Part shown: one piece after another, positions 10,123 through 43,000 of the stretch | Position numbering within the stretch: the stretch's first letter is position 1 | Layout of the letters: each line of letters begins with the position of its first letter | Program-made: the position numbers and the translations under genes | Source of the DNA: Octopus vulgaris | Taxonomy: Eukaryota | DNA: 64,000 nucleotides | NCBI GenBank assembly: GCA_951406725.2 | Contig: OX597814.1 | Location: 149,978,001 to 150,042,000, forward strand | Direction of reading: 5' to 3' | Notes under the pieces: model-generated | The model's database searches: none | What the model was told of the DNA's origin: nothing | Seen by the model: only the letters and a program-made list of their open reading frames with translations

Positions 10123-13100
10123 TTTTATACAAAAGAATTAAATGATTGATGATATGCATTTTCAATACTTGACTTCATTGTTAGAGATGCGGCAAAATGA
10201 ATTTAAAAATAATGAAAGTTAATCATTATTAAATTACCAAAAAAAAAAAAAAAAAAAAATCATAGATATCTTAGCTCAGCCTAAACTGGTATGATTAGAA
10301 CAAGATTTTGATGTTGAAGAAATATGTATATATGATTATAATAGAATTTATTGAAAAGCCTTTTAAATTGAACAAGCTATTTTTAAAAGGATAGAAGCAA
10401 CTGGGAGATAGGAGCCGATATAAAATCTATATGTTAGACATATATAACGACTAATACTTTGATGCAAAAAACTTTGGAACAAGTTCATAAAAGGCCATAA
10501 TGTAACCAGTTTGTAATACTTGTCTAATTACAAGGCAATATGGATAAACAGCAGATCAGTAAACAAAGACTGGTTCTTGCCAGCAGCAACAACTTTTATG
10601 AAGGAATAATTATCATCACAAATAGCCTGACAAAAAAATTGAAAATAGGAAGATTCCCTATCTTAATATTGCCAACATTACTTGGGGATAAGTGAAACTA
10701 TGTCAGATACATCCTGGGTATGAAGAAAGGCAGGAAGACCATTAATGATAATAGACTCTTAAGGAGAGAGAGAAAGAAAAAAGGTCATTCATTGGTTCAG
10801 CAGAAGATACAAATAATGCTCTCTTCAGACATAACCATATACACCACACTAACAAGAAACTTAGGTGGGGTAGTATACTATTTATCATTAGTAAAACGGC
10901 AACTGACAAGAATGGAACCACTGGTAGATGAACATTTTATTATCAAAAGTAGGAAAACTAGCCTCATCAAGAGTGCCACTGCTCAAATCTTAAAACTCCT
11001 TCAAAGGTTGCAATAAGATTTGAAGAAAAAAAAATGACAGTTTCAAAGAAGTGAACAACACAGATGCATAAACTTCAACAGCTTATTCCAACACACAACT
11101 GAGCAAGAGGAAAGTAATTTCATTGAAGTCTGAACAGTAAATGATGCAAAAGTAGGCAGTCATACAGCATTGGATGAGCCTCTGACAACAAACTGTTTCA
11201 CCTTACGTTCTCAAAACTGTACTCGGGTACTTCAACAGGAGTAAGAGAAAGCAAGGCTTAACACCAACCAGTAATCCTTTAACCATAGTGATTTGTTTCA
11301 AATACATTTACAGCAAACAGCCCAGCAGAGTTGTGGAAGCAGATAAAATATTATATTTGGAGGGACGTAAATTACTTTGGACATCATGCAGCATTTGAAA
11401 CATCACAGTTTTTGTTACATTACACCAACAATGAATTAATGTAATTATATCACTGTTTTATTTCTTTGATCAAAGGATCACCAGTAAACAATCTATCAGC
11501 CCCACAATTGTAATTTGGACAATCCCTTCTTAACATCCAATAAATACTGAATAGTCATAATTCAAGGCAGTAATATAGATATTTTCAACAATGCTGTAAA
11601 ATAACCAATCAGTTAAATGCTTATTTTTCGTATTAAGTAAGCAATCAAATTCTATATCTCTCAGTCTGGCTGAACTATGATAAAGACAGTTAAAACATTC
11701 ATTTAATATTTATTGATCACAAATCAACTAAAACAATATTTAGAAATTCAAACCGAAAAAAAAAATATTGTTTACAAAATAGAACTAAAGAGCAGCTCCC
11801 TAAGAAGTCAAGTATGAATTCAATGTTGGAGAGATGTGTGCCATTACAGAAAAAAAAAAAGACTAACTTCTAAATTTAAATCAAACATTTTGCTTTCCCC
11901 CATCGAGACCAGGAAAAGGAAGTTATTCCTCTAACAAACTGAAGAGTGAAGTAAATGTCACAAACATAATGGAAAAGAACAGTTAAGAAAAAAAACAAAA
12001 AAAAACCATTTAAGCCCAAGATATTTCTGGTTACCCACAAAACTAGTTTGGTTTCTTAACACATTAGCAACAAACAGTCCTGTAAAAATACCACCACTAA
12101 CTTTTGGAATTTAGAACAGTACATAAAACATGCATGTATACAATCTATGTATATGGTCATTCATAATGGATATGTGAGCAGTACAGAATATGAAAACCAG
12201 GACCGTTTCTCATGTAAGCACAAAACCAGCAGTTTCTGTGAGGTGGTGGTTAGTCAATGCTATTGATCCCAGTATATGCCTTCAAGAACATTATTTTATC
12301 AACTTACAAAAAAGGAAAGACAAAGTTGACCTAAGAATGTCAAAATATAGTGAGTTATTGATTAAGATGGTATTGACTAAGACTTTCACTTCTCAAAGCT
12401 GGATATGTGCTCAAATTAATAAAATATCTGAACAAGAACTTTAGCACCATGAAATAGTTCATTAACACCACCAAAACTATATCCTTTCAATTGCATCAAA
12501 TAATTAAAATTTATGTGCCCAGCAGAATTAAGCTTAAAATGAGCAACCTTTAATATTCAGGACTACAAGCATCTCTACCTTAGCTATGACAACAGCATGG
12601 ACTCTATCCCAAATACACAAGTCACTGTCAACCGAAGTAATGGTCAGTTATGACCACATTTGATAAGATGGTCATTGCTGAACAATATTTGCTCAAGCCA
12701 AACTGATTTCACTTTGAACAATAATCTGTTTTTTTTTGTATTCAACACTAAATGCTACAGGGGCCAGTGTCTCTTGGGCAATGATGGGTTTCTTCAATGG
12801 AATTCCATGATTTAATTATGACATATTGCATATATACAACTTGTTTATGACCACCCATCCTAACAGCTATCCTATCTCAACAGAAGCAATAAACTGAGAG
12901 TTGTTAGAGAACTCAGTAGATTATTAACTTGAAAGCGTTTCAAAGAATTGTGAATAAATAAATATACAAACAACTTAAGAGAAACAATCAGTTAAACAGT
13001 TGCTACCATTAGATCTATGTATAGAAAGATATCTTGTACTTACTGACAGCATAACTATGAACAGTTGGGAACGATTGTATGGGGGAGAGAAAAAAAAAAA

Positions 13101-13179
13101 AAAAATCACACCCGACAAATGTTTTATACATCATGAATCAAATTATGTGAATCAATGAAATGTCTAAGTAACTGCATTA

Positions 13180-23094
<9,915 letters not shown>

Positions 23095-23848
23095 TAAATG
23101 AAAATCAGAATGTGATTAGTTGAACGTTTATTATCACCCAGCTCTGTAATTTAACAAATAGAAGTGTTTAGATTCACACATACGTCATCATCATCGTTTA
23201 ACGTCCGCTTTCCATGCTAGCATGGGTTGGACGATTTTGACTGAGGGTTGGCGAACCAGATGGCTGCACCAAGCTCCAATCTTGATCTGGCAGAGTTTCT
23301 ACAGCTAGATGCCCTTCTTAATGCCAACCACTCCGAGAGTGTAGTGGGTGCCTTTTACGTGCCACCGGCACGGAAGCCAGTATCTATTTATAAGTAAATA
23401 TAAGAAACACATGTTTTACTTCATTTCACAGCCACTAAAATTTTCAGTGTAAAAATTCAGTGAGTTAACTTGGTATGAAGAAGAGAAAGACAAGTCTTTA
23501 TTTCTTCAAAGAAAATGTGTGTGTGTGTGTATACATATATATACACACACACACACTCACTCACATGCAGTCAGGTCAGTCACAAGTGCTACTGGCAACA
23601 GTCTGGTACAACCTACTTATTGCATGATCAGGTTGTCAACAAAGAAAGACCGGTCTGGTGAGGAGAATTGCAAGAAATTCAATAGCTGGAAAGCAATATC
23701 TATTAAAAAAAAGAAACTGATGTACCCAGTGCAGGGTAATATGACCATCAATAACACAGTTACTTCAAACTTCCAGTTTGGAATCTGCCATGGCGAAAGA
23801 ACACCAAGAGTCGAGCAGCCCTTGGCTTTCATTAAAGAAAGCTTTTAA

Positions 23849-24054
23849 CCCTTTAGCATGTAAACCAACCACATCTGGACCAAATAGTCAACCACTTTTA
23901 TGCTCAGACTGGCCAGATATTCCCTCTCACACATACCCAACATTGTTTTTCTAAACATAAACAGTCACATCATTGAAATCTGAAAGCTGAGTAATTCAAA
24001 CTAAAATGAATATATAAGGATTATAGTTAACAGAATAATCTGAATGCTAAAGGG
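23849..24054. mobile_element. piggyBac-type MITE (relatives at 40123-40337, ~22330-22550, ~43190-43630, ~50475-50670)
   Basis: TTAA target duplication, CCCTTTAGCA...TGCTAAAGGG termini. Confidence 0.8.
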
Positions 24055-24367
24055 TTAAGAAGGCACCACTGTTTTACCAGCTACACTAGCAGTATAACTG
24101 GGCAAGAAGGTGATCTGGGCTCAGTAGCCTTGGAAGGCAGCCAGACTAGAAGATCAACTCTTGAACATAAGCATTCTCTGCTTGTGTCTGCAAAGAGGAG
24201 TCAATACAGACAGTAAATCAGGAGAACTTTGCACCTCCATCAACACCACCAGACCCTATCCACCCCAAAGACAGTTTGAAAGTGGGCAAGAAATGGATTT
24301 TCAGCCATGATAAGGAGAACATCTACCTACTTATATATCCACACACACATTTTCTGAAATCACAAAA

Positions 24368-24496
24368 ACATGTCACAAAATTTATGCCTTCACTGTTACA
24401 AAGAAACAATGAAGGAAAGTGATAGTGTATTTATGTAGCAACAAACAATTATTCCAGAGAGAAAAACTCAAGAAATATACATAAAAATTGTTGCAA
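24368..24496 (-). ncRNA. Unassigned H/ACA snoRNA, copy B
   Basis: 3' half nearly identical to copy A; H box ACAUAA differs only at an N position; identity stops just after ACA. Confidence 0.68.
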
Positions 24497-26672
24497 TAAG
24501 TGGATGGAGGGTAAAAAATTACTAGCTGAATACATTAAGACCTGCTTAGATTCACATATAAACACAATATACAAGACCCATCTTTTCACATCACATTCAC
24601 TAAAATTTTCAAACTAAACAAATATACATAACAAAATTTGCCTCTTTCTGCTGTAGTCCACGCTCAATTAAACAGGTGAAGTGTACCATAACTTCACAAG
24701 TGCTGGTACCACAAAAAGAAAAGAAGCCATTATTCTACAAAGTGACTGGTTTATGAAATAGAGTAGAAGTTATGCCAAAAGACATGGGGGGGGGGGCATG
24801 ATGCAGTCCCTCCTGCCTGATGCCATCAAACCATGCCAGGTTGCTTACAAGTACTACTGTTACATGAAAGTCAATGACTATCAGTAGCACAAGAACATAG
24901 ATCTTTTCAATTGGGATCCAACAGGCTGTGTAAGATCACTGAAGTGAAGCAACCCATATCACTTGTCAAAGAAGGTCTCTAAAAGGAGACACTACTTTGT
25001 ACAACCGAACTGATATAGCTGTTAGTTTAACTGGGCTTGGCAGCCCAGAAAGACAAAATTGAGCTTCAGAAATGCAACCACACATGGATTGTTGGTGATT
25101 TTTCCTTCTTCTTTGGACTTTCCTCTTTCCAACAAAGAGCTATGCTTGAAATGTTAACAACTCTCTCCTTTTACTAAGTGTCAAATTAATATACTGCTCC
25201 TGCACATCCTCACATTTGCTTTTCTTTTGCTTTTTAATTACTCATTCATTGAATTGACTAAGAGAAGGCCAACTAGTACAAGCCCTCACTGCCTGTTAGT
25301 GCCTGTCAAGAGATAGAAAAGTAAGGGAGCCAATCCCTTAGGGTAAATTGAGTCAGAAGAGAAATACCCACACCAACCTTGCTCTGACTCCATCTTCAGG
25401 CTCTATTCATGCCAAAGAGAACTGGAAGAGTCAATGAATGGGTTGTGCCAGAGTACCCTAACCCTGCGCCATGACAATGGGAATATTCATTTACTTTTTA
25501 AAAGGCAAGTAAAAGGAGTTAGTACCAGGATGCGCATTCAGCTGTAAGCTACCTAAAACTATCCCGTTTAACCAGTGCCAGCATGAAGATGAAAATGTTG
25601 ACTTTGTGACTTATAGAAGTGGCAATACAAGCAAAGGAAGGGGCAGGAGATCCCTTAACTGCAACTCAGGTCTACTCAACACAAATCAGTACTTTGCATT
25701 GTACAAGACCCAATCACTTTACTGAAATGCAGGATAATTAGTATGCATCAGCATATCTAAATGAATACAATTAACACAAGAAAACCAACAGAAAAATTTT
25801 GAAGTGAAGGCACATTATTCACATCACAAACTTATGAGGAAAAGGTTGAATGCCACAGGTTGTTTCATTTATTCCTACTATAAATCAACTATGGGAAATG
25901 GTTGAGATCAAAGTGAACCTTTCTGAAACATCTAGCTCAATAATAAAGAAATTAAGTTCTTTCTAAACACAGTTAATAAAATACCATTATTATAGAAACC
26001 ATGTTATTTGTGTCGGAGCTTTGTTCTGTTTGCAAAATGAGTACACTAAGGGAAGTCCTTATAAAAGGAAGACGCAAACACAAGCCTGTTTTTGGAGGGA
26101 GCAGGGGACATTAACAAGTAAATGACATAGGCAGGTCACAGACATTGTTACAAGTTACTATATACTATGCAACAAAAAAACATCACTCATTTCATTCCAA
26201 GAAATTAGTGTTACCACAGATTGGACACAAAAGAAGAACCAGTGCAACAGGCCTAAGGGAGGCCCATCACCAGAGATCGAAGAGAATTCAGATACACGTG
26301 GCTCTATTAGCTTTCTAAACATCACCGTCAGTAAATAAAGCAATTAACATAGACGATTCATGCCATTTATTTGTTCAAGTATCTTTTTCCGTTCATAAAA
26401 GAATGCTTAGGGTAAAAAAACAGCAGCAAAAGTAAAGAATACGTACAACCTGATGGGTTTTTGTTACGCCGAAAACGGGTGGTGTATGTATTCTTTACCT
26501 CAACCGAAACAGCTTCCAACTGATAACAAAGCCCCTGCGGTTTAAGAGAAAGGGGTGAAGCGATCACTCGCCTTTAGTTTTCCAAGAACATTAGTACCAT
26601 GTCAAAATAAGGGACATCAACCTCTCAGGGGTTACCACCTACTACAATACAAAACGCACGATGATCGACAAA

Positions 26673-26807
26673 TATTGTCACAACAAAACGAGTAAGTTTT
26701 TTTTTTAACATAGCAACACAATATATTCCAAACGTTCTGTTGTATTTAATGTTTCCCATGCGTACAACTATTCTATTATAGAAACAAAATAGCAAATAAA
26801 TGGGAGG
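26673..26807 (-). ncRNA. SNORA20: H/ACA snoRNA SNORA20-like, copy 1
   Basis: UCCCAU/AUGGGA stem, pocket UUAUUU / UGUACGC, H box ACAUUA, 12-bp 3' stem, ACA+3. Confidence 0.8.
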
Positions 26808-26863
26808 GAAAGCATCAACTGAAGATGCTAATCCTCAAATAAAAGAGATTCATTGTCTCTTAC

Positions 26864-26921
26864 CAGATTAATCACCTTCAATCATCTTTCCAGACCACAA
26901 CTAATACTACCAGTCCTCAAA
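26864..26921 (-). other. Predicted 58-nt non-coding cassette exon (further copies at 28872-28929, 30861-30918, 32868-32925)
   Basis: Branch point CTAAC (26946-26942), acceptor gatttcAG, donor CTG|GTAAG about 55 nt upstream of SNORA20. Confidence 0.55.
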
Positions 26922-27879
26922 CTGAAATCATAATTCAATATGTTAGACACGGTTTTAAAACCATACTGCCATTAGGCTGCAAAAATACATGTATTTATAA
27001 GCTTAAGATTGCAGAACTGAAGTGAGGACATCTTTCAAGGTAGTAGAACAGTACAGATCAATGGTTCTCAACTAGGATCCAGATAAGATTTTGCTGTCAA
27101 AATTTACGGGCAATAAATTGGTTATATTTCTACAATATACAAATTAAACATTTTTTATAGAACTCCTATCGGAACCAAAGGGGTCCACAGGCAAAAAATA
27201 GTTGAGAAACACTGATATAGATAAAGATCTAGCAATGCATAACTTTTATGAAGTCCTGAGAGTTGATCAATACATCTCAGTAATTTAGTACAGCTCGTTT
27301 TTGAGCGTGGCCGTTGCCAGTACCGCCTGACTGGCCCTCTCTCGAGGTTGTTGGTGTTAGGAAGGGCATCCAACTGTAGAAACTCTGCCAGATCAAATTG
27401 GAGTCTGGTGTAGCCATCTGGTTCGCTAGACCTCAGTCAAATCGTCCAACCCATGCTAGCATGGAAAGCGGATGTTAAACGATGAGGTTTTTCAGCTGTA
27501 ACAAGGAATACTATTCCAAGGAAACATGATCCTTTATTTTGAATATTGCCTACCTAATATAATGAAAATGGAAGTTTATAATTGTTAAATATATTCGAAT
27601 TATTACTCAACAACTTCCCGTTAGTTTGCTTCAGATTCTCACCATAGGAAAATACTAGATCCATTCTTAATTGGCAATAAAATTAAGGCAATATTTTAAA
27701 AACAGCTAGATCCAACATTTTTAAGATAAGGGGAAACTGGAGTTTTTCCAAATTTTACTTCTAAAGAGGAACCTTTGGGCCACCTTTGACTTTGAACGAA
27801 TCCCTTCGTTTTTTATGACCTTGCTGTTCCCAAGGTCAACTCCCTTTACCCCCAAAACATTTTTATCCTACATAAAAAA

Positions 27880-28275
27880 CCCAATGCCATAAACGTAGAA
27901 GATATACAACGAAGGGCCCAGCACTTAAGAGAACTTTTAAATAAAACAACTAAGCTTTACATGTCCCTGCCTACAGAAGACCAAAAGGGAAATATTAAAG
28001 GCTTTGAAGATCATAAGCGGAATCTACGACAAAGTTATTTGAAAATATAAGGGAACACGATAAGAAACATGACAGCAACAAGTGAGAATGAACGTAAGGA
28101 AACACTACGAGAGAGTAGTGAATATTTAGAAGAGAGCCCTTCCATAAGGTGATGCAATCTGAAAAGATTTATCCACACCTGGAATAATATAGAAACAACG
28201 AAGACGATAATACATAATCGCTGTGACCACTACCAAAAAAAGAACTAGTGAAACAGGCCTAAGGGAGGCCCATCA
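27880..28275 (+). mobile_element. Degenerate CR1-clade LINE 3' end, repeated in each array unit (also ~29900, ~31880, ~33890)
   Basis: VEDIQRRA...KIISGIYDKV and downstream RVVNI-like remnant resemble the CR1 ORF2 C-terminus; GGCCT-n5-AGGCC tail hairpin. Confidence 0.6.
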
Positions 28276-28681
28276 CAAGAGATCAAAGAGAATTCAGATA
28301 CACATGGCTCTAATAAAGAATAAAGTTTCTTTTCTTTCTAAACATCACCGTCAGTAAATAAAGCAATTAGAATAGACGATGCATGCCATTTATTTGTTCA
28401 CGTATCTTTTTCAGTTCATAAAAGAATGCTTAGGGTAAAAAAAAAACAGCGGCAAAAGAATACGTACAACCTGATGTGTTTTTGTTACGCCAAAAATGGG
28501 TGGTGTATGTATTCTTTACCTCAACCGAAACGGCTTCCAACTGATAACAAAGCCCCTGCAGTTCCAGAGAAAGGGGCAAAACAATCACTCGCCTTTACTT
28601 TTCCAAGAACATTAGTACCATGTCAAAAAACGGGACATCAACCTCTCAGGGGTTACCACCTACTACACAATGATCAACAAA

Positions 28682-28815
28682 AATTGTCACAACAAAACGA
28701 GTAAGTTTTTTTTTAACATAGCAACACAATATATTCCAAACGTTCTGTTGTATTTAATGTTTCCCATGCGTATAACTATTCTATTATAGAAATAAAATAG
28801 CAAACAAATGGGAAG
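28682..28815 (-). ncRNA. SNORA20: H/ACA snoRNA SNORA20-like, copy 2
   Basis: CUUCCCAUUUGUUUGCU...AGUUAUACGCAUGGGA, H box ACAUUA, ACAAUU end. Confidence 0.82.
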
Positions 28816-30670
28816 GAAAGCATCAACAGAAGATGCTAAACCTCAAATAAAAGAGATCCATTGTCTCTTACCAGATTAATCACCTTCAATCATCTTTCCA
28901 GACCACAACTAATACTGCCAGTCCTCAAACTGAAATCTTAATTCAATATGTTAGACATGGTTTTAAAACCATACTGCCATTAGGCTGCAAAAATACATGT
29001 ATTTATAAGCTTAAGACTGCAGAACTGAAGTGAGGACATCTTTCAAGTTAGTAGAACAGTACAGATCAATGGTTCTCAACTAGGATCCAGATAAGATTTT
29101 GCTGTCAAATTTTACAGGCAATAAATTGGTTATATTTCTACAATATACAAATTTAACATTTTTTATAGAACTCCTATAGGAACCAAAGGGGTCCACGGGA
29201 AAATAGTTGAAAAACACTGATATAAAGATCTAGCAATGCGTAACTTTTATGAAGTCCTGAGAGTTGATCAATACATCTCAGTAATTTAGTACAGCTCGTT
29301 TTTGAGCGTGGCCGTTGCCAGTACCGCCTGACTGGCCCTCTCTCGGGGTTGTTGGCGTTAGGAAGGGCATCCAACTGTAGAAACTCTGCCAGATCAAATT
29401 GGAGTCTGGTGTAGCCATCTGGTTCGCCAGACCTCAGTCAAATCATCCAACCCACGCTAGCATGGAAAGCGAACGTTAAACGATGATGATGTTTTTCGGC
29501 TGTAACAAGGAATCCTATTCCAAGGAAACATGATCCTTTATTTTGAATATTGCCTACCTAATGTAATGAAAATGGAAGTTTATAATTGTTAAATATACTC
29601 GAATTATTACTCAACAACTTCCCGTTAGTTTGCTTCAGATTCTCACCATAGGAAAATACTAGATCCATTCTTAATTGGCAATAAAATTAAGGCAATATTT
29701 TAAAAACAGCTAGATCCAACATTTTTAAGATAAGGGGAAATTGGAGTTTTTCCAAATTTTACTTCTAAAGAGGAACCTTTGGGCCACCTTCGACTTTGAA
29801 CGAATCCCTTCGTTTTTTATGACCTTGCTGTTCCCAAGGTCAACTCCCTTTACCCCCAAAACATTTTTATCCTACATAAAAAACCCTATGCCATAAACGT
29901 AGAAGATATACAACGAAGGGCCCAGCACTTAAGAGAACTTTTAAATAAAACAACTTTAAGCTTTACATGTCCCTGCCTACAGAAGACCAAGAGGGAAATA
30001 TTAAAGGTTTTGAAGATCATAAGCGGAATCTACGACAAAGTTATTTGAAAATATAAGGGAACACAATAAGAAACATGACAGCAACAAGTGAGAATGAACG
30101 AGAGAGTAGTGACTATTTAGAAGAAAGCCCTTCTATAAGATGATGCAATCTGAAAAGATTTATCCACACCAGGAATAATATAGAAACAACGAAGACGAAA
30201 ATACGTAATCGCCGTGACCACTACCAAAAGAAGAACTAGTGAAACAGGCCTAAGGGAGGCCCATCACAAGAGATCAAAGAGAATTCAGATACACATGGCT
30301 CTAATAAAGAATAAAGTTTCTTTTCTTTCTAAACATCACCGTCAGTAAATAAAGCAATTAGAATAGACGATGCATGCCATTTATTTGTTCACGTATCTTT
30401 TTCAGTTCATAAAAGAATGCTTAGGGTAAAAAAAAACAGCGGCAAAAGAATACGTACAACCTGATGTGTTTTTGTTACGCCAAAAATGGGTGGTGTATGT
30501 ATTCTTTACCTCAACCGAAACGGCTTCCAACTGATAACAAAGCCCCTGCAGTTCCAGAGAAAGGGGCAAAACAATCACTCGCCTTTACTTTTCCAAGAAC
30601 ATTAGTACCATGTCAAAAAACGGGACATCAACCTCTCAGGGTTACCACCTACTACACAATGATCAACAAA

Positions 30671-30804
30671 AATTGTCACAACAAAACGAGTAAGTTTTTT
30701 TTTAACATAGCAACACAATATATTCCAAACGTTCTGTTGTATTTAATGTTTCCCATGCGTATAACTATTCTATTATAGAAATAAAATAGCAAACAAATGG
30801 GAAG
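30671..30804 (-). ncRNA. SNORA20: H/ACA snoRNA SNORA20-like, copy 3
   Basis: Same sequence and fold as copy 2. Confidence 0.82.
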
Positions 30805-32676
30805 GAAAGCATCAACAGAAGATGCTAAACCTCAAATAAAAGAGATCCATTGTCTCTTACCAGATTAATCACCTTCAATCATCTTTCCAGACCACAACTA
30901 ATACTGCCAGTCCTCAAACTGAAATCTTAATTCAATATGTTAGACATGGTTTTAAAACCATACTGCCATTAGGCTGCAAAAATACATGTATTTATAAGCT
31001 TAAGACTGCAGAACTGAAGTGAGGACATCTTTCAAGTTAGTAGAACAGTACAGATCAATGGTTCTCAACTAGGATCCAGATAAGATTTTGCTGTCAAATT
31101 TTACAGGCAATAAATTGGTTATATTTCTACAATATACAAATTTAACATTTTTTATAGAACTCCTATAGGAACCAAAGGGGTCCACGGGAAAATAGTTGAA
31201 AAACACTGATATAAAGATCTAGCAATGCGTAACTTTTATGAAGTCCTGAGAGTTGATCAATACATCTCAGTAATTTAGTACAGCTCGTTTTTGAGCGTGG
31301 CCGTTGCCAGTACCGCCTGACTGGCCCTCTCTCGGGGTTGTTGGCGTTAGGAAGGGCATCCAACTGTAGAAACTCTGCCAGATCAAATTGGAGTCTGGTG
31401 TAGCCATCTGGTTCGCTAGACCTCAGTCAAATCATCCAACCCACGCTAGCATGGAAAGCGAACGTTAAACGATGATGATGTTTTTCGGCTGTAACAAGGA
31501 ATCCTATTCCAAGGACACATGATCCTTTATTTTGAATATTGCCTACCTAATGTAATGAAAATGGAAGTTTATAATTGTTAAATATACTCGAATTATTACT
31601 CAACAACTTCCCGTTAGTTTGCTTCAGATTCTCACCATAGGAAAATACTAGATCCATTCTTAATTGGCAATAAAATTAAGGCAATATTTTAAAAACAGCT
31701 AGATCCAACATTTTTAAGATAAGGGGAAATTGGAGTTTTTCCAAATTTTACTTCTAAAGAGGAACCTTTGGGCCACCTTCGACTTTGAACGAATCCCTTC
31801 GTTTTTATGACCTTGCTGTTCCCAAGGTCAACTCCCTTTACCCCCAAAACATTTTTATCCTACATAAAAAACCCTATGCCATAAACGTAGAAGATATACA
31901 ACGAAGGGCCCAGCACTTAAGAGAACTTTTAAATAAAACAACTTTAAGCTTTACATGTCCCTGCCTACAGAAGACCAAGAGGGAAATATTAAAGGTTTTG
32001 AAGATCATAAGCGGAATCTACGACAAAGTTATTTGAAAATATAAGGGAACACAATAAGAAACATGACAGCAACAAGTGAGAATGAACGAGAGAGTAGTGA
32101 CTATTTAGAAGAAAGCCCTTCTATAAGATGATGCAATCTGAAAAGATTTATCCACACCAGGAATAATATAGAAACAACGAAGACGAAAATACGTAATCGC
32201 CGTGACCACTACCAAAAGAAGAACTAGTGCAACAGGCCTAAGGGAGGCCCATCACCAGGGATCGAAGAGAATTCAGATACACATGGCTCTAATAAAGAAT
32301 AAAGTTTCTTTGCTTTTTAAACATCACTGTCAGTAAATAAAGCAATTAACAGACGGTTCATGCCATTTATTTGCTCACGTATCTTTTTCCGTTCATAAAA
32401 AAATGCCTAGGGTAAAAAAAAAACAGCGGCAAAAGTAAAGAATACGTACAACCTGATGGGTTTTTGTTACGCCGAAAACGGGTGGTGTATGTATTCTTTA
32501 CTTCAACCGAAACGGCTTCCAACTGATAACAAAGCCCCTGCAGTTCAAGAGAAAGGGGCGAAACAATCAGTCGCCTTTACTTTTCCAAGAACATTAGTAC
32601 CATGTCAAAAAACGAGACATCGACCTCTCAAGGGTTACCACCTACGACAATACAAAACGGACGATGATCATAAAAA

Positions 32677-32811
32677 AATTGTCACAACAAAACGAGTAAG
32701 TTTTTTTTTTAACATAGCAACACAATATATTCCAAACGTTCTGTTGTATTTAATGTTTCCCATGCGTATAACTATTTTATTATAGAAATAAAATAGCAAA
32801 TAAATGGGAAG
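32677..32811 (-). ncRNA. SNORA20: H/ACA snoRNA SNORA20-like, copy 4
   Basis: CUUCCCAUUUAUUUGCU...AGUUAUACGCAUGGGA matches the recalled human SNORA20 5' hairpin ends; H and ACA boxes present. Confidence 0.85.
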
Positions 32812-34682
32812 GAAAGCATCAACAGAAGATGCTAAACCTCAAATAAAAGAGATTCATTGTCTCTTACCAGATTAATCACCTTCAATCATCTTTCCAGACC
32901 ACAACTAATACTGCCAGTCCTCAAACTGAAATCTTAATTCAATATGTTAGACATGGTTTTAAAACCATACTGCCATTAGGCTGCAAAAATACATGTATTT
33001 ATAAACTTAAGATTGCAGAACTGAAGTGAGGACATCTTTCAAGTTAGTAGAACAGTACAGATCAATGGTTCTCAACTAGGATCCAGATAAGATTTTGCTG
33101 TCAAAATTTATGGGCAATAAATTGGTTATATTTCTACAATATACAAATTAAAAATTTTTTATAGAACTCCTATAGGAACCAAAGGGGTCCACAGGCAAAA
33201 AATAGTTGAGAAACACTGATATAGATAAAGATCTAGTAATGCATAACTTTTATGAAGTCCTGAGAGTTGATCAATACATCTCAGTAATTTAGTACAGCTC
33301 GTTTTTGAGCGTGGCCGTTGCCAGTACAGCCTGACTGGCCCTCTCTCGGGGTTGTTGGCGTTAGGAAGGGCATCCAACTGTAGAAACTCTGCCAGATCAA
33401 ATTGGAGTCTGGTGTAGCCATCTGGTTCGCCAGACCTCAGTCAAATCGTCCAACCCACGCTAGCATGGAAAGCGAACGTTAAACGATGATGATGTTTTTC
33501 AGCTGTAACAAGGAATACTATTCCAAGGAAACATGATCCTTTATTTTGAATATTGCCTACCTAATGTAATGAAAATGGAAGTTTATAATTGTTAAATATA
33601 CTCGAATTATTACTCAACAACTTCCCGTTAGTTTGCTTCAGATTCTCACCATAGGAAAATACTAGATCCATTCTTAATTGGCAATAAAAATAAGGCAATA
33701 TTTTAAAAACAGCTAGATCCAACATTTTTAAGATAAGGGGAAATTGGAGTTTTTCCAAATTTTACTTCTAAAGAGGAACCTTTGAGCCACCTTCGACTTC
33801 GGACGAATCCCTTCGGTTTTTATGACCTTGCTGTTCCCAAGGTCAACTCCCTTTACCCCCAAAACATTTTTATCCTACATAAAAGACCCAATGCCATAAA
33901 CGTAGAAGATATACAACGAAGGGCCCAGCACTTAAGAGAACTTTTAAATAAAACAACTTTAAGCTTTACATGTCCATGCCTACAGAAGACCAAAAGGGAA
34001 ATATTAAAGGTTTTGAAGATCATAAGCGGAATCTACGACAAAGTTATTTGAAAATATAAGGGAACACGATAAGAAACAGGACAGCAACAAGTGCAAATGA
34101 ACGTAAGGAAACACTACGAGAGAGTAGTGAATATTTAGAAGAGAGCCCTTCCATAAGATGATGCAATCTGAAAAGATTTATCCACACCAGAAACAACGAA
34201 GACGAAAATACATAATCGCCGTGACCACTACCAAAAGAAGAACTAGTGCAACAGGCCTAAAGGAGGCCCATCACCAGAGATCGAAGAGAATTCAGATACA
34301 CATGGCTCTAATAAAGAATAAAGTTTCTTTTCTTTCTAAACATCACTGTCAGTAAATAAAGCAATTAACATAGACGGTTCATGCCATTTATTTGCTCACG
34401 TATCTTTTTCCGTTCATAAAAAAATGCCTAGAGTAAAAAAACAGCGGCAAAAGTAAAGAATACGTACAACCTGATGGGTTTTTGTTACGCCGAAAACGGG
34501 TGGTGTATGTATTCTTTACCTCAACTGAAACGGCTTCCAACTGATAACAAAGCCCCTGCAGTTCAAGAGAAAGGGGCGAAACAATCAGTCGCCTTTACTT
34601 TTCCAAGAACATTAGTACCATGTCAAAAAAACGGGACATCGACCTCTCAGGGGTTACCACCTACTACACGATGATCAACAAA

Positions 34683-34812
34683 AATTGTCACAACAAAACG
34701 AATAAGTTTTTAACATAGCAACACAATATATTCCAAACGTTCTGTTGTATTTAATGTTTCCCATGCGTATAACTATTCTATTAAAAAAATAAAATAGCAA
34801 ATAAATGGGAGT
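34683..34812 (-). ncRNA. SNORA20: H/ACA snoRNA SNORA20-like, copy 5 (its 5' end coincides with the array edge)
   Basis: Hairpin-H-hairpin-ACA; pocket strand UAUACGC is complementary to 18S GCGUAUA and lies 14 nt from the H box. Confidence 0.85.
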
Positions 34813-36323
34813 AAACGAGGTAGCAATAATGTCAAATTGAGAAAAAATTTTTAACGATTCAAAAGAAAAAAAAAAATCAGGCAACAATTCGCAAATCAGA
34901 CCGTTAAAGCCGACTAGAATGTTCGTTCTAGTTATTAACACCACTGATTTATATAAGATGTATGGTGTTGTCATTTCAAGGGCATTGTGAAAGGAGTCAA
35001 ATTCTGTAGAAAATACCTTAAATATAGAAACCTCCTTAAAATAAAACCTTCGAGGTTAAACGGAAAATGATCAAACGGATATGATGAACTTGAGTCGGGG
35101 GAAAATGAAAAGGAATGTATGACCTTTTTTTAAGGTCAAAGGTTCGTTTCATAGAGTGAAAAGGGAAAGCAGAAGTTCAATGTCCTTTAAATGTTTCAAT
35201 ATTAAGCCTCACAGACTTACAAATAAATTACAATCACGAGCACCAAATTAAAATCTGTAAATGGAAGAGGTGGTTAAGGGTTTCGAGACCGGAGTCTACG
35301 ACCAAGAGACGTTTTCGTTACTTTTAATTGATGTGCACACACACACACAAACAAATATATATTATATTATATATATATATACATATATAATGCACACAAT
35401 AATCTGAACAGAGAGCCTGCAGAACGTGATATTTGATGGTTCTCCGAGACCAATGAGAATAAAACGATTTATACATTCTGTCCAAAGCTAAGTGGACGGC
35501 TACAGGAAAATTGTGAAGGGAGGGATTCCTGGGTGGCGATTTGTGGGAAGGACAGGGCGTAACTTTATATCAGACATGATAACTGAATTACGCTGGATAT
35601 CACTAGAAAAGAAACAAAGAACCTATTTAAAACAAAATTTATTCACAATAATTACCAGCAACAGTTAGCCACCAAAAGATTTCACTTTGTAATGCATGAA
35701 CACGTGGATGTAAATAACCACGTGGGTTTATATAAGGAACATTACATTGTTCATTGAAGCTAAAATTCTAAAAATATTTAAATGTCTTTAGAGATTGCTG
35801 TTATAAATCAGCAGCTGACAATTATTTTCCTTTGAAAAAAAAAAATTTTTAATGAATGAAATTGGCGGAATACGTTATATTGATTAAGGCAATAAAAAAA
35901 AATCGGGATATATCAATTGCAGTAATGTATTACTATTTTTATTAATTATCAATTTTCATTTTCTGTAATATTTAAAACAAGAAAATCAAAAACTTTTCCA
36001 TCTCAATTATTATTATGAGATTGCATGTATCTATGTTGAAAGAAATGGGTTAAAGAGACCTCCCCTCTTTTCGTTAGCTTCAACACCGGCTTGCCGGCAT
36101 GGGCTGGAACAGGTGCACGATTAATTAACGCCAGGCGGGCTTCATTGAATTATGTTTGACATCCAATTGGTGTTCGTTATATTATAAGTAATAAGACAAA
36201 TTGAAAAATATTTAAAACTAACTCAAATGAGCGGCATTATAAAATAAATCATAGACTGAACAAAAACACTTAAGGAGGAGGGCACGTTTAAAGGATAAAG
36301 CAGCTCATGATATTTTAACTTAC

Positions 36324-36450
36324 CAAATTATTCAGCAGACTGCTGTCTGAGTCGTTTCTCACGGCGAATAACTGATTTTAAGGCCTACACCACTACGCTC
36401 CTCCACCGTTAATCAGCTGAACTATTGAATATCCGGTGACACGCAGAAAG
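36324..36450 (-). other. HSPD1: Probable non-coding first exon of HSP60 (upstream edge approximate)
   Basis: Strong donor TTG|GTAAGT at 36323 next to the HSE-containing, CpG-richer promoter. The ATG exon has an acceptor only 5 nt before the ATG, so an upstream exon is required. Confidence 0.65.
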
Positions 36451-36660
36451 TCTGCGGCCCGGGACTCGGCATATTAAAACGAAATAGCTTTATTATAAGA
36501 ATTATTTTCAACTCATTTGTGTACTTCAAAATGAATTTCTGCAAGAAATATCGATTAAATGAAACTTTTTGTATGCAAATTAAGCATATTGCGAAATCAT
36601 TTAAATTTAAGACTAAATCTTCTGTTTGGAAATTACATTATACAGGGTTAGGTTTTATGT

Positions 36661-36675
36661 TGAACTTTCTAGAAA
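36661..36675. promoter_or_regulatory. Heat-shock element 1 in the HSP60/HSP10 bidirectional promoter
   Basis: tGAActTTCtaGAAa, three perfect alternating nGAAn units. Confidence 0.85.
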
Positions 36676-36797
36676 TACTGCTCGACTTTTTGGAGTTCAA
36701 TATTTTAAACCACTTTTACGAAGTGTTACGTTTATTAAACAAAATTGTAAATCAAAATAATAACAGTAAGTCATTTTAAAGTTAATTACACTAAGCA

Positions 36798-36812
36798 TTT
36801 CTAGAAGCTTCT
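36798..36812. promoter_or_regulatory. Heat-shock element 2 in the bidirectional promoter
   Basis: tTTCtaGAAgcTTCt, three perfect alternating nGAAn units. Confidence 0.85.
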
Positions 36813-37000
36813 AAGAATGAATACGGATAATTTGGAGTTACCGACAGGTCATTGCGACTGCGCATTGATACATAAGCCGCGCATGGGAAAGGCCGGTCAT
36901 TGATCCTTCTAGTTATTTACTAGTAAATCACGTCCGAACATTCTTGTCGTCCTGAAGTTTTGTCTGCTTTAAACCAAACCTTGAATTTAGAAAAACAACA

Positions 37001-37003
37001 ATG
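37001..37003 (+). CDS. HSPE1: HSP10 exon 1 coding part (ATG only)
   Basis: aaacaacaATG|GTATGT; an ATG-only first exon is also the vertebrate HSPE1 layout. Confidence 0.85.
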
Positions 37004-40000
37004 GTATGTGTGTTTCATCAATGCATATAAACATCTGATATGTCTATTGATGTGTTTATGTTTCAGCGACCGCTAAATGAATGAGTTATGTAAAAGAACG
37101 TTTCCTGCCCACCTTGTGATAATTTCCACGTGTTCTCTGTTCTTTGTAGATAGATTCTCTTTAAAATTATGGTAACCGGTGTTGGGGTAATTGTTCTTTT
37201 GCTATTATTACCCTAGCTAGGTCCGCTTTTTCAATGGGAAGTTTCGAAGTTAAAATAATAAACAAATTTGTAATCCAACATGAAATAATTTACGCTAATG
37301 TAAATTATTACTCTGTTTTAATTCATTTTTATCTATTCTCCTATATTTATGTAACTCAATCTGTTGCTTTTCTATTCGTCTCATTAAAAAGAAAATGTTC
37401 GATTGGATTTAATAATTAAAAGTTAATTCTTCAAATATATATAAATCTTGAAATATATGCCTCTGTGTAAATAGTGACTTTTTTGTAAGACCTGTGCTTT
37501 TAATTATTTGATATAAAGACAACTATCTCTGAAGTGTTTCATAATATTCTGTAATCATTTTACACGTTTGTTTTCTAAATTTTTAATTACATATTAAAAT
37601 ACTCCCTTAATCCTTTGTTGACCTTTAGGGTACCTTCGCTTGGTGCACACCTTTTTTCGCTATGCATTGCCTTCATGTATGACATTGAATTTTTGACCTT
37701 GTCGAAACTAAGTTAGGGTCTGAAGATCTTTCTTCGTAAGGACGCCCTAAATTAACGCGAACGGTCTACTGAAGCTATTCGTGCATGTAACACTATACAG
37801 CCGTTGAGGTATTAAAGAGGGCTACAACATTTAGGAATACCCTTCCCGTTCGTTATCTTATATAAATATACATTTTTTTTTTCTTAGATTACGTGTTTCT
37901 GTTTCGCCCACGTGAAACGAACTCCGAAACTATCCATTTACACTCATCATGCCCTTGAAAAATTATTTTAATAATAAATGAGACTGTTTCTTTATGCTAA
38001 TTTTATTGGCTTTGTTTTAAAAACATTCCTCGTTTGTGCGATCGAATTCTGTTCCACTGTAATATTAAATTATAAATTAAAGGCGGCGAGCTGGCAGAAA
38101 CGTTAGCACGCCGGGCGAAATGCTTACCGGCATTTCATCTGTCTTTACGTTCTCAATTCAAATTCCGCTGAGGTCAACTTAGAGCCCCACCCCCACCCAG
38201 TTCTCCCAAATGTGTTTAATAAAAAAAAAAATTTTTTTAAATTGCCGAAGACCCCGTTTTCGTATACGGAGGTTCCGGAAAATTGCCAAAAATCAGTATT
38301 GTTAAATTTCGCCCCCTAAATTATTCTTGCCATTCATCCTTTCGGAATCGATAAATTAAGTACCAGTTGCGTACTGGAGTCATCTTATCGACTGGTCCCC
38401 TCCCCCAAAATGTTGGGCCTTGTGCCTGGAGTACAAAAGAATATTAAAATTATAAATTGAAGTTGTCAGCAAGCACATTAGAATTAATCAGTTTTTCCAA
38501 CTTTTACTGGATAATCAACAGAAAAACCTAATAGATCAAATGAAATTAACCTTCAACGACTCGCGTTTTCATATTAAAAAACGAATTTCGGTGTCGAGTT
38601 CTGTAAAGCTAACTTTAAATCACAACCCTTTAAAAAAATAGTGTCCGATAATGAAATTTTAGTGAAGTTGATTTTATTAAAAGTATTATGATAACGTTTT
38701 CTTTTCTTTTTGATACGGGCTAACTGTTTAACTTTCCCACTCACCCCCCTTTATTTATTACGATTTGTGTTATGTTACTGTGACCTTTTTTCTTTTAATA
38801 TCTAATAATGGATCTGCGAACTATATTTTTTTATCTACGGACGTTTTTTTGGGTTAGGTAAAACAATTTTAAGTCTTTTTATAATGAAGCATTACTTGTG
38901 ATAAGGATTTGATCCCCTAAATGATTTTATCACTCGTTAATTCAGGTTTATACAATTTTATCTCATAAGGGTAGTTTAAAGGTCAACTTATCTTAGTTAA
39001 AAATTCTCCGCTCCCGAAAACTAGGTTATGACTTAGATTTACTTAATTTCAGACATTGGACCGCGGCTGTTCTAGGGCACCGTCTTTCAAGGACTTACTC
39101 GGTTCATACCTGAATCGCACCTCTCTTGAAAAAAAAAAAACTTTTTTTTTTATATTCCCGATTCCTATGTTTTAGATATCGGAGATTACGAATATGCAAG
39201 AAAACACGTTTTCAAAATTTTAAATTCAATAAGCATAGATATGTGTATAAAGAAATAGATAGATATGAATGCCTTCCTGGGGATCTAAAAACAAAAGTAA
39301 CTATATAAACTCATGGTCGTTATTAATCTATTTAAAATGAGACAAGTAATTCACTGTATAGACCAGATGTGAAGAAAACTGAGGCCAATTTACTTATTGA
39401 TTAGTTCGTAGGAATTCAGTGTTTGCTGCTAGATTTTAGGACCAGTGGTGGTAGATCAGTGCTTTTTCATTATGATCCATTGCACATGTCGCAGTTCACT
39501 TGGCCACCCGAATATATGAAACAGCAGAGTGCAAATGTTACAATCTTATAGGTAACTGAACATTGTTGCTTATATTGCAAACAGAATGGTGTTAGGTTGC
39601 CAAAACATGCAGAGCTCAGTAGCACCTTGATTGCAGTGACAGCACAGGCTAGGTGGGTTTTTTTCAGATTAAGGATTAAGCAGATGTCTCTGGTTTAATG
39701 TATACTTGACCCAAGTTTTGTTGCTTTGCATGCCAAACTAAGATGAACTAGAAAACTTTAATCCAGCTGATCATGTTTCCGCCAACTGTGTTGAGAACTT
39801 GAAGTTAAGGAGCCTCAGGTTTGGAGATAGATGGTCAGGTCCTGTTTATGTAATGACTTTTCAATGTGAATAAAGAAATTACATCACTTGTCAGTTATTA
39901 GCAAATATATCTACGTGTGAGAACCAATGTAAAAAAAAAAAAAACCATTCTTATCTTAAATACTGTGACTATTAAACAAAATTGTAATTAAGCAATATAG

Positions 40001-43000
40001 TATCAGTGCAGATAGACTCTCTGTTAAATGAATATGCATGTGTGTTAGCACACCAGGCGAAGTGCTGAGTATTTCATCTGCTGTTAAATTCTGAGTTAAA
40101 ATTCCGCCACGGTCGACTTTAACCCTTTAGTGTTTAAACAGACCATATCCAGCACAAATATTCCGTCCTGCTTTATGTTGAAACCTGCCAGATATGACCT
40201 ACAACTACCTTAGAATGTCATTCTAAAAATAAGCAATCACATCATCAAAATCTCAAAGCTATGAGGTAATATTTGATTAATTCAAAGCAATGTGAATAAA
40301 CATTACATTTTGACAAATTAATCTGAATGCTAAAGGGTTAAGCCTGTTTATTAGGGAGTACTTTTCAATGATGCTCTGAAATATATAGGTTTTTGGTGGT
40401 TTTTGATTATCTCTTATCGGCTCTGCTTTAAAGTGGCAGCCAGGTCACATAATCGCTCTAATACACACTTTTCCATGCTTGCATGTGTTGGGCAAAGCTT
40501 AGTCTGATTTTTCTATGGTTGAGTGTCCTTGTTGCCAACTCTCACTTGATTCTGCACAAGGTAATATTTCCCTATGGCCAGATATGTTCTCACAGAATAC
40601 TAGAAATGAGTGACTCGTGTGACTAATGCTCATAGATGACTATCACGCAATGTCAATTCAAGGAGATACACGATGGGCTTCTTTCAGTGTCTGTCTACCA
40701 AATCCTCTCAAAAAGCTTTAGTCAGCCCAGTGTTATAGCAGAAGACATTTGCCCATGGTGCCACACCATTGGGATTGAACCCAGAACCATTTGTTGGGGA
40801 AGCAAACTTTTTACCACACTGTCATGTCTGCACCTAATTATCCGATTTGTTGCACATAAAAAATGAAATAATTAGCAAGGCATTATTCTATTTTCATCAC
40901 TTACTGGGGTGCATGCTCCAGCAAGGCATATAAACCCACATTTGAATTGAAAGTAGATACACCTAATTATAGGCAAAATGCTATTATTACTTAAGCCATC
41001 TTGTTGCTTGCTGTGTTCATCTGATGCTCCCACTAATCTCAGTCCTACTACTACAGATCATCTGCCTTTCTATTTGTTTTTCCTGCAATCTTTTAACTTC
41101 ATAATAATACTCAAATTGAACATCAGCCTATTAATTTCACATAGTCTCAGCAGGCCTTCAAGGGTCATAGATAACGACTTTCTTTGTGATGAGATTTTTT
41201 TTTTTTATTTGGACCTGTTGCAATAAATGCATAGTAATATATATTTTTTTACATTATTAGAAATGTCAAGTCACTGAGTTTACTTGTAAGCAAGCTGTTT
41301 TAAATTAAGATTGTCTTCAAAGTGGAAAGACTAAAAGGTGTTCCTTGGAATTTGGCCACTACAGTGATCTAGTTATGTTGAAACCTGTTGATGATTATGT
41401 ATTACAGTTGTAATTTTCTAAAATATAATTTGCTAATCTGCCATTTGTAATAAATTTATGAATCAAACATAAGACTTTTTATTATTATTATTATAGGCTC
41501 GTGCTTTTAACAAATTTTTACCATTATTGGACCGTGTCCTTGTGGAGCGATTTCTGCCTGAACTAAAAACTAAAAGTGGTCTCATGATCCCAGAGAAGTC
41601 TCAAGGCAAGGTTGTCCAGGCAACAGTGGTGGCATGTGGTCCAGGAGGCAGAGCTAAAGTATGTATTTTCTATTTTTGCATTTTTACTCCCCAGCATCAT
41701 CTGCATGCAGATGATGGGCAGATTGTATGCTGCTTGTATGGGAAGTTCAATACTGCTTAGTGGTGCGGTGTGGGCTCTGAATGTAGCTGTTGTTTGGCAA
41801 ATTGAGTTGAATGAAGCATGAATGTTTTGATGTCAGTGTTAATGAACAATGCAAATGAGCTGAAAGAAATGCTGAGCATAAGGAGAATCAGATGTAGTGT
41901 GCAACAGGGAAGACTGTGTTGTCATGGGTGTGTGATATGTATAGAAGGTGTCAGCTGTATAAAGAAGCATGGGGCCCTCAAAGCAGATGAAATTTATTGA
42001 GTAGGGACTCAAGATGAAGTGTTGAATGCAATCAGAATGTTGAACCCCATGGAGATGACAGGACTTAGATAATTAGTGACACAGTGTCAAATAAAAAATC
42101 ATTGTCTTGTACAAGTATAGTGAAATCAATGCTAAATTTGTTAATTGCATAGACTGGACAGTATGTGTATTTGCACAAACACATGCACACATTCTTTTGC
42201 ATCTCTGATCCAATATACCTCTCCCCTGTCTTTGGTACCCACTTGCTTCCCTATATTCATTCATTTGTTGCGTGACTGATGAAGGCATGGCATCCATCAC
42301 TATTTATTCATCTGTGCTTCTATTACTCTATCTTTTTATTAGCTCTTTCCAGTGACTGTTTCTTTGTACACATGCACACTTATCCACTTCTGTCATCTCT
42401 TCTTACACTAATCTCAAGTATGTTACCTTGAATGGATACAGAATGATGAGTGTTCTTAAAGAATACAAAGCAACTGGTGCCAGGATAAAATGTACTAAGT
42501 ACACTCTGTAAAGTGTTTTTAGTGAATGAATTGAGAAAGTGTAATTAGAAGTCTTTGTCTTGCTGAGAATATTACAACCTCAATAAAATGCTCCCCAATA
42601 CAAAAAGTGGTTGGTTGATAGGAAGGGCATCTACTTGTAGAAAGTAGGTCAGATTTGCAATGTTTAAGTGGTCTGTCAACCCACTTAAGATAGTAACTTT
42701 GAAAAGGAACCAGCTCTCCAACCCATGGAAAGACATGGTCTATTTGAGTTGCAAAGTTAGTTGATAAAATGTTACAAATAAGTTTAGTAAATTGCTGGAA
42801 ATTAAAAGCATTTACTGTGAGATAATCATTGTTGATGGGGACATGTACTTTATATGGATTATGTATGCTCAATAAAAAGATGGCATAAGACTGAAAATGT
42901 TGCCACTGATATTCTAAGCGTTTATTAATTACAGAGTTGAGAAACAAGATAATTTTATCAGTTCTATTTGGATTATTGAAGATTACATGCAAAATATAGT

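Follow-up and report, generated by a model that had tools for sequence, protein, structure and literature searches.

Box H/ACA small nucleolar RNAs (snoRNAs) are defined in a 2024 review by two hairpins, a hinge of the form ANANNA (the H box) and an ACA three nucleotides (nt) from the 3' end (PMC11028025). Among vertebrate members, chicken ACA20 is listed with 3+7 nt of pairing in its 5' hairpin, 18S-612 as its target and intron 9 of TCP1 as its host (PMC2653536), and human SNORA20 is likewise located in TCP1 (PMC4824147). Duplication of snoRNAs in cis, inside the host gene, has a precedent (PMC2653536), and the H/ACA loci of Drosophila are described as generally clustered in introns (PMC3089462). 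Here, we analyse a 64,000-nt stretch of the Octopus vulgaris genome (contig OX597814.1, positions 149,978,001 to 150,042,000; hereafter the window), in which the first intron of the HSP60 gene carries a tandem array of five repeated blocks, each with one SNORA20-type gene. We consider it fairly probable that this intron, which lies in the 5' untranslated region (UTR), is a Drosophila-style H/ACA cluster made up of the five SNORA20-type copies and two older copies of a second family, all predicted to guide the pseudouridylation of ribosomal RNA (rRNA).

Two hairpins are predicted for each of the five array copies (z -3.2 to -4.3, with 0 of 200 shuffles as good), which carry the H box ACAUUA, an ANANNA hinge, 14 nt from the 5' pocket and an ACA 3 nt from the end. 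At the gathering threshold (GA), Rfam gave no match in the window, whereas in E-value mode all five copies matched SNORA20 (RF00401) with 38.4-46.4 bits against a GA of 60, at E-values from 3e-5 to 2e-3. The alignment comprises the 5' hairpin and hinge only, and 56 model positions are unaligned in every copy. Because the scores are below the 60-bit gathering threshold, the copies are called SNORA20-like and not formal members of the Rfam family. In the organism's own 18S, at all three loci read, GCGUAUA-UU-AAA occurs at position 852 and forms 7+3 pairs around U852 in the 5' pocket. This is the best site for the pocket in 18S and in the stretch from the internal transcribed spacer to 28S (ITS-28S), and only 1 of 500 rRNA shuffles was as good; its context is that of human Psi651. 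We take human SNORA20 to guide U651, which the chicken ACA20 entry supports. The array copies are therefore regarded as predicted pseudouridylation guides for the 18S counterpart of human U651. A first-pass annotation of this DNA had described the module, its pocket spacing, the 18S pairing and the SNORA20-type target, and all of these stand; its expectation of five covariance-model hits held in E-value mode, with none at the gathering threshold and with the 5' hairpin alone aligned. In human 18S, the segment UA-Psi-A-Psi-UAAAG (647-656) includes Psi651, reported as 93% and 98% modified in two cell lines (PMC6182160).

In the source genome (2.8 Gb, 227 contigs), five matches to the snoRNA part and four to the unique spacer part were found, every one of them in the array. 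A DNA search and a strict pattern search there turned up no further SNORA20-like gene, which makes the array locus the probable source of the guide in this organism. A looser pattern gave two extra matches (L030 and L031), about as many as estimated by chance, and no snoRNA hit coincides with either of them; L030 was rejected as an extra SNORA20-like gene, as it sits in a long near-perfect, MITE-like palindrome (L030:1390-1720; MITE, miniature inverted-repeat transposable element). An RF00401 profile search of the source genome found nothing among the 53 scored of ~588,774 candidates and is uninformative, and the SNORA20-like pattern had no matches in metagenome contigs. Two full-length 18S matches occur on the window's own contig (C1:148617900-148620537, L008, and C1:149685106-149687744), at distances of up to 1.4 Mb and 0.3 Mb from the window, and measure ~2640 nt against a model of 1831 positions.

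Further, the same intron holds two other H/ACA genes, B1 and B2, which the earlier annotation had omitted. Both have the boxes and hairpins of the class, and they agree with each other in 117 of 130 columns and in 60/108 and 49/107 columns of their 100-nt flanks; the snoRNA has been kept at 90% with flanks decayed to 46-56%, so that conservation is limited to the RNA. The family is present in the source genome in these two copies only, and both are below the SNORA1 (RF00408) threshold of 70 bits and are not classed as SNORA1. Their identical 3' pocket forms 3+7 pairs with U3307 of the organism's own 28S (1 of 500 shuffles was as good), in the context of human Psi3694, so that the 28S counterpart of human U3694 is the predicted target of the pair. 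Human Psi3694 is reported as 100% modified (PMC6182160). A match of the 5' pocket to 18S U1751 (human Psi1244 context) clashes with the predicted fold and is tentative. With its flanks decayed, the B pair appears to show a later stage of the duplication process seen in the array. A generic H/ACA scan over HSP60 gave 10 sense-strand hits, seven of them with independent support. The hits at 20973, 16096 and 14798 were set aside, as their free folds lack two hairpins and the antisense control gave 4 rows at 3 places; the first is a weak H/ACA-like hit in another HSP60 intron (20855-20973, minus strand). Rfam found no snoRNA in 12800-20000.

The host lies on the minus strand and encodes the mitochondrial chaperonin, since the exon following exon 2 matches human HSP60 with an E-value of 1e-55, in agreement with Pfam. 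Four of 24 listed public runs (X2, X4, X9 and X17), all in the form of assembled contigs, were compared over 32813-37100, a stretch comprising one array unit, exon 1 and the promoter. The RNA status of X9 and X17 ('RNA-like') is assumed, and RNA ends are not readable from contigs; X9 covers most of the intron except 36388-36816, X17 is without the snoRNA or the candidate exon discussed below, and such gaps were not used as evidence. An X17 contig exits the compared stretch at 36324, and its next 30 letters are those that open the ATG-bearing exon at 22858. Because this contig joins 36324 to 22858, the array is placed inside a 13,465-nt 5'-UTR intron of HSP60, which agrees with the earlier assignment to intron 1. 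The junction spans all seven snoRNAs and is shown in one of the two RNA-like runs; the locus is thus an intronic snoRNA cluster in the sense of at least two snoRNA genes in one spliced intron.

Self-BLAST resolved the array into five S blocks (26228-26807, 28234-28815, 30225-30804, 32213-32811 and 34232-34812) and four spacers, with offsets of ~2.0, 4.0, 6.0 and 8.0 kb and identities of 89-95%. The right edge coincides with the snoRNA 5' end. The flank upstream of the array shares no homology with the end of a spacer: its local score is 29.5, and shuffles reached 38.5. The newest duplication, 32212-30225 against 30224-28234, has 3 substitutions and 3 gaps in 1991 alignment columns, while older S blocks differ by 3-7%. 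Spacers 2 and 3 are almost identical, as are blocks 2 and 3, and this mosaic of copy differences fits repeated unequal exchange. The first-pass annotation was borne out in the block layout, bounded here at 26228-34812, in the right edge and in unequal crossing-over between two ancestral copies; 'recent' amplification holds for the last step only, given the distance between the older blocks.

The head-to-tail joint (34810->32813) is present in three of the four runs, namely X9 and X2 (organism A) and X4 (organism B). An assembly artefact, either of the whole array or of its most similar unit, would be suggested by the one 2-kb stretch that is 99.7% identical to its neighbour. Because the joint recurs under two organism labels, in different samples and studies, the array is taken not to be such an artefact, a possibility that the earlier annotation had left standing; the 3-7% divergence of the older blocks speaks against it as well, as do the unit contigs, which are deeper than the flank in both DNA runs (~51-57 against 15.5 in X2; ~48-93 against 48 in X4), where depth is not equal to copy number. 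We give the artefact next to no chance. The X4 flank contig has 28 differences in ~1700 nt, and because this is less than the divergence between older blocks, the first duplications likely predate the split of organisms A and B. At five positions the main S-block contig of X2 has the copy-2/3 alleles, which are not seen in X4; the make-up of the array thus seems to differ between samples.

Within the S blocks, 7 of 126 snoRNA columns are variable compared with 47 of 425 in the rest of the block (P=0.09), and over four units the figures are 5/126 and 87/1836 (P=0.83). All seven variable snoRNA columns spare the boxes, stems and guide pairs (P ~0.06 under a rough transition model), and their placement is weak evidence of constraint. 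The pair-preserving changes noted earlier are correct for copies 1 and 4, but an A>G change at position 11 of the 5' pocket strand (A11G) in copies 2 and 3, where the Rfam consensus has a conserved A, was overlooked. The changed base is predicted to pair across the pocket, with an opening cost of 2.8 compared with 0.5-0.6 kcal/mol; the pocket would then be partly closed, and protein binding may undo the closure. Both A11G copies stem from the newest duplication.

Table. Coordinates of the features in and around HSP60 intron 1 (positions in the window)
Feature	Position	Strand	Remarks
Tandem array, ~2.0-kb period	26228..34812	-	Five S blocks (~580 nt) and four spacers (~1.4 kb); self-BLAST
SNORA20-like copy 5	34683..34812	-	Rfam 42.8 bits; fold z -3.9; 7+3 pairing to own 18S U852
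SNORA20-like copy 4	32677..32811	-	46.4 bits; fold z -4.1
SNORA20-like copy 3	30671..30804	-	43.1 bits; A11G predicted to close pocket partly
SNORA20-like copy 2	28682..28815	-	43.1 bits; identical to copy 3
SNORA20-like copy 1	26673..26807	-	38.4 bits; one G-U pair in guide duplex
Second H/ACA gene, B1	24368..24495	-	Weak SNORA1 match, 30.1 bits, E 0.04, GA 70
Second H/ACA gene, B2	22966..23093	-	30.0 bits
HSP60 intron 1	22859..36323	-	13,465 nt, in 5' UTR; X17 contig runs from 36324 to start of exon 2
HSP60 non-coding exon 1	36324..36401	-	Starts at 36401 or further upstream; coverage and loose ends of X17
HSP60 exon 2 with start codon	22686..22858	-	ATG-bearing
HSP10 exon 1	36863..37003	+	Head-to-head with HSP60; ends at own ATG; splices to exon 2 near 41497
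Perfect three-unit heat-shock element	36661..36675	.	Shared HSP60/HSP10 promoter
Second perfect heat-shock element	36798..36812	.	Shared HSP60/HSP10 promoter
MITE-like repeat, 18-nt inverted ends	33061..33220	.	One per spacer; high depth in DNA runs
Fragment of very high-copy SINE-like repeat (SINE, short interspersed element)	33343..33494	.	One per spacer; SINE label inferred
77-nt dispersed hairpin repeat	34446..34522	.	Within each S block; at least 35 dispersed matches (40 of 820 candidates scored)
Decayed S-block-tail relic	25904..26038	-	Just downstream of array; local score 65.5 against maximum 42 in 200 shuffles

The interval between the first exons of HSP60 and HSP10 (36401-36863) forms a short bidirectional promoter, and the HSP10 exon 1-2 junction is seen in both RNA-like runs (X9 and X17 contigs). 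By the consensus that we take to define heat-shock elements, two of the only three perfect ones in the window lie in this promoter, where the chance of two in 463 nt is ~5e-5; the promoter proposed earlier to be driven by such elements thus has two of them, at 36661 and 36798.

The relic downstream of the array (72% identity over its best 72 columns) points to a local duplication of greater age. The high-copy fragments of the spacers (27339-27485, 29340-29491, 31329-31480 and 33343-33494) are inverted relative to a copy at 23186-23339, which sits between B1 and B2 and is ~90% identical to them over 150 nt. Given these inverted repeats, double-stranded RNA could arise within the intron and be subject to A-to-I editing or cleavage. 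A C/D-like motif in the S-block tail (34280-34360) was rejected for want of a stable fold (z +1.5), and matches of mir-2483 and mir-297 type proved to be repeat or microsatellite hairpins far under the cut-off. An array built as a terminal-repeat retrotransposon in miniature (TRIM) or long terminal repeat (LTR) element, or a snoRNA retrocopy, was also discarded: judged by the features that we take to define these, the junctions are without TG..CA ends, target-site duplication or poly(A), and there are no dispersed copies.

The proposed origin begins with an event that would have given rise to an S-spacer-S arrangement whose left edge was the snoRNA 5' end; recombination begun in snoRNA homology is likelier than retroposition because there is no tail or target-site duplication. 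Unequal crossing-over would then have added units and left the mosaic, and copy number would shift by ongoing, mostly neutral unequal exchange. The snoRNAs would be transcribed within the HSP60 pre-mRNA; after splicing and debranching, exonucleases would trim the intron to the outer small nucleolar ribonucleoproteins (snoRNPs), and the inner copies would be freed by cuts in the spacers, a fly-like route that we take as the most likely. Heat would raise the precursor passively and is unlikely to change the 18S site, because that site is probably near saturation.

Several points weigh against an H/ACA cluster of this kind. The release of the inner copies is proposed by analogy, and snoRNAs of animals are described as mostly one per intron and freed by exonucleolytic trimming (PMC11028025). 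Neither of the two comparisons above shows the snoRNA to be significantly better conserved than its surroundings in the array, the SNORA20 scores are under the Rfam cut-off with the 3' hairpin aligning in none of the five copies, and the Rfam match of the B family is weak (E 0.04), with a pocket 13 and not 14 nt from the ACA. The 3' pocket of the array copies has no structure-consistent target in 18S, 5.8S or 28S (small nuclear RNAs were outside the search); it contains an A-run of variable length, and a free-boundary target scan gave spurious scores of up to 10.5. In addition, no mature 130-nt RNA was present in the runs compared, all of which are assembled contigs.

The main alternative is that the intron stays uncut between its snoRNAs, so that trimming, once halted by the outer snoRNPs, yields long RNAs with H/ACA snoRNAs at their ends, up to ~11.8 kb in length (copy 5 to B2) or shorter in 2-kb steps. 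Two snoRNAs in one intron can yield, in mammals, snoRNA-ended long non-coding RNAs (sno-lncRNAs) such as SLERT (PMC11028025), and here seven share an intron, the sole exon-1 splice junction seen (X17) skips them all, the spacers are kilobases long and no strong spacer hairpin was found, as z < -2.5 was confined to the snoRNA and the 77-nt repeat in a sliding scan of one unit. Such long products are unlikely in view of the Drosophila H/ACA loci, whose general clustering in introns (PMC3089462) suggests that single guides are freed from a shared intron in some invertebrates, of the old B pair, which is conserved over the mature snoRNA alone, and of the repeat-rich spacers, which show no sign of constraint. 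Quite unlikely is the fuller proposal that the intron gives rise to heat-inducible multi-kb RNAs capped at both ends by H/ACA snoRNPs, with up to seven snoRNPs and a length varying with the copy number of the individual; if true, these would be an invertebrate, copy-number-variable counterpart of SLERT. A separate possibility is that a small non-coding exon is hidden in each unit (candidate 32984-32869 and its equivalents), so that minor isoforms have one snoRNA per intron. An AG acceptor and a GTAAG donor do occur ~60 nt upstream of copies 1-4, but no long pyrimidine tract accompanies the acceptor, and the motif scan did not select it. Among the joints listed, moreover, the only exon-1 junction runs straight to exon 2, and an X9 contig is unspliced through the candidate exon into the snoRNA. 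As the exon would also leave copy 1, B1 and B2 unseparated, we attach very little probability to it.

The first-pass annotation had proposed a selected dosage amplification, in which more copies under a heat-shock promoter raise 18S pseudouridylation in heat or mitochondrial stress. The two perfect heat-shock elements, the boxes and stems kept in all five copies and the junction retained under two organism labels are in its favour, and stress-chaperone hosts exist, with three U14 copies reported in hsc70 introns (PMC7277114). Against this, the snoRNA has no significant extra conservation, the newest duplicated type carries the predicted pocket-closing change, array make-up varies between samples and human Psi651 is already 93-98% modified (PMC6182160). 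Chaperone genes are, furthermore, ordinary snoRNA hosts (TCP1, CCT6A, HSPA8 and HSPA9 in chicken; PMC2653536). We therefore do not retain the proposed coupling of stress to pseudouridylation, and regard selection for dosage as very unlikely; the heat-shock elements are plausibly a means of passive co-induction of the precursor, and an adaptive stress coupling is not shown by the locus at present.

Taking the intron as an H/ACA cluster, the locus contributes two guides for rRNA modification that are overlooked when Rfam is applied at its thresholds, and it places SNORA20-type genes in a chaperonin host different from that of vertebrates. One intron here combines an old, flank-decayed snoRNA duplicate with a young array that is still turning over, and its copy-specific alleles make it a practical locus for studying the release of multiple snoRNAs from a single animal intron. 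In the literature on SNORA20/TCP1, on SNORA20 and 18S position 651, on HSPD1 as a host and on cephalopod snoRNAs, covered as titles and abstract openings, we found no published account of the HSP60-intron array, and PMC12508059 and PMC13360834 yielded nothing relevant to it; supplement tables of cephalopod genome papers may list the genes. The gene type is familiar, and seven snoRNA genes in one intron are uncommon.

The closest single gene is vertebrate SNORA20/ACA20 (RF00401), which resembles the array copies in the sequence and pocket of the 5' hairpin, the 3+7 pairing, the 18S context and residence in a chaperonin-gene intron. The array copies differ in scoring below the gathering threshold, in a 3' hairpin that cannot be aligned and in a mitochondrial HSP60 host in place of TCP1; moreover, chicken ACA20 is listed in one copy, whereas the array has five, all in one intron. 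Human sno-lncRNAs and SLERT, ended by SNORA5A/5C, share with the locus the presence of more than one snoRNA in an excised intron, but the locus is described here as genes and not as an RNA of that kind, and it has seven snoRNAs versus two in an intron that is constitutive versus one made by exon skipping. U14 (SNORD14) in hsc70/HSPA8 is similarly a multi-copy snoRNA in a host of a heat-shock family; it belongs to the C/D class, however, and in chicken is listed with one copy per intron (introns 5, 6 and 8; PMC2653536). Cis-duplication of snoRNAs, as described in that survey, is likewise tandem and within the same gene with structure conserved, although vertebrate paralogues usually end in separate introns (PMC2653536). 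In the 2024 review, recombination in cis is associated mainly with C/D genes, and retrotransposition with those of the H/ACA class (PMC11028025). With regard to arrangement, the array unit is 2 kb long with transposon fragments and is still turning over, and the host group is the molluscs. The H/ACA clusters of flies are compact. As described, the Drosophila loci nevertheless share the arrangement, with several H/ACA genes, near-identical copies among them, in one intron of a protein-coding host (PMC3089462).

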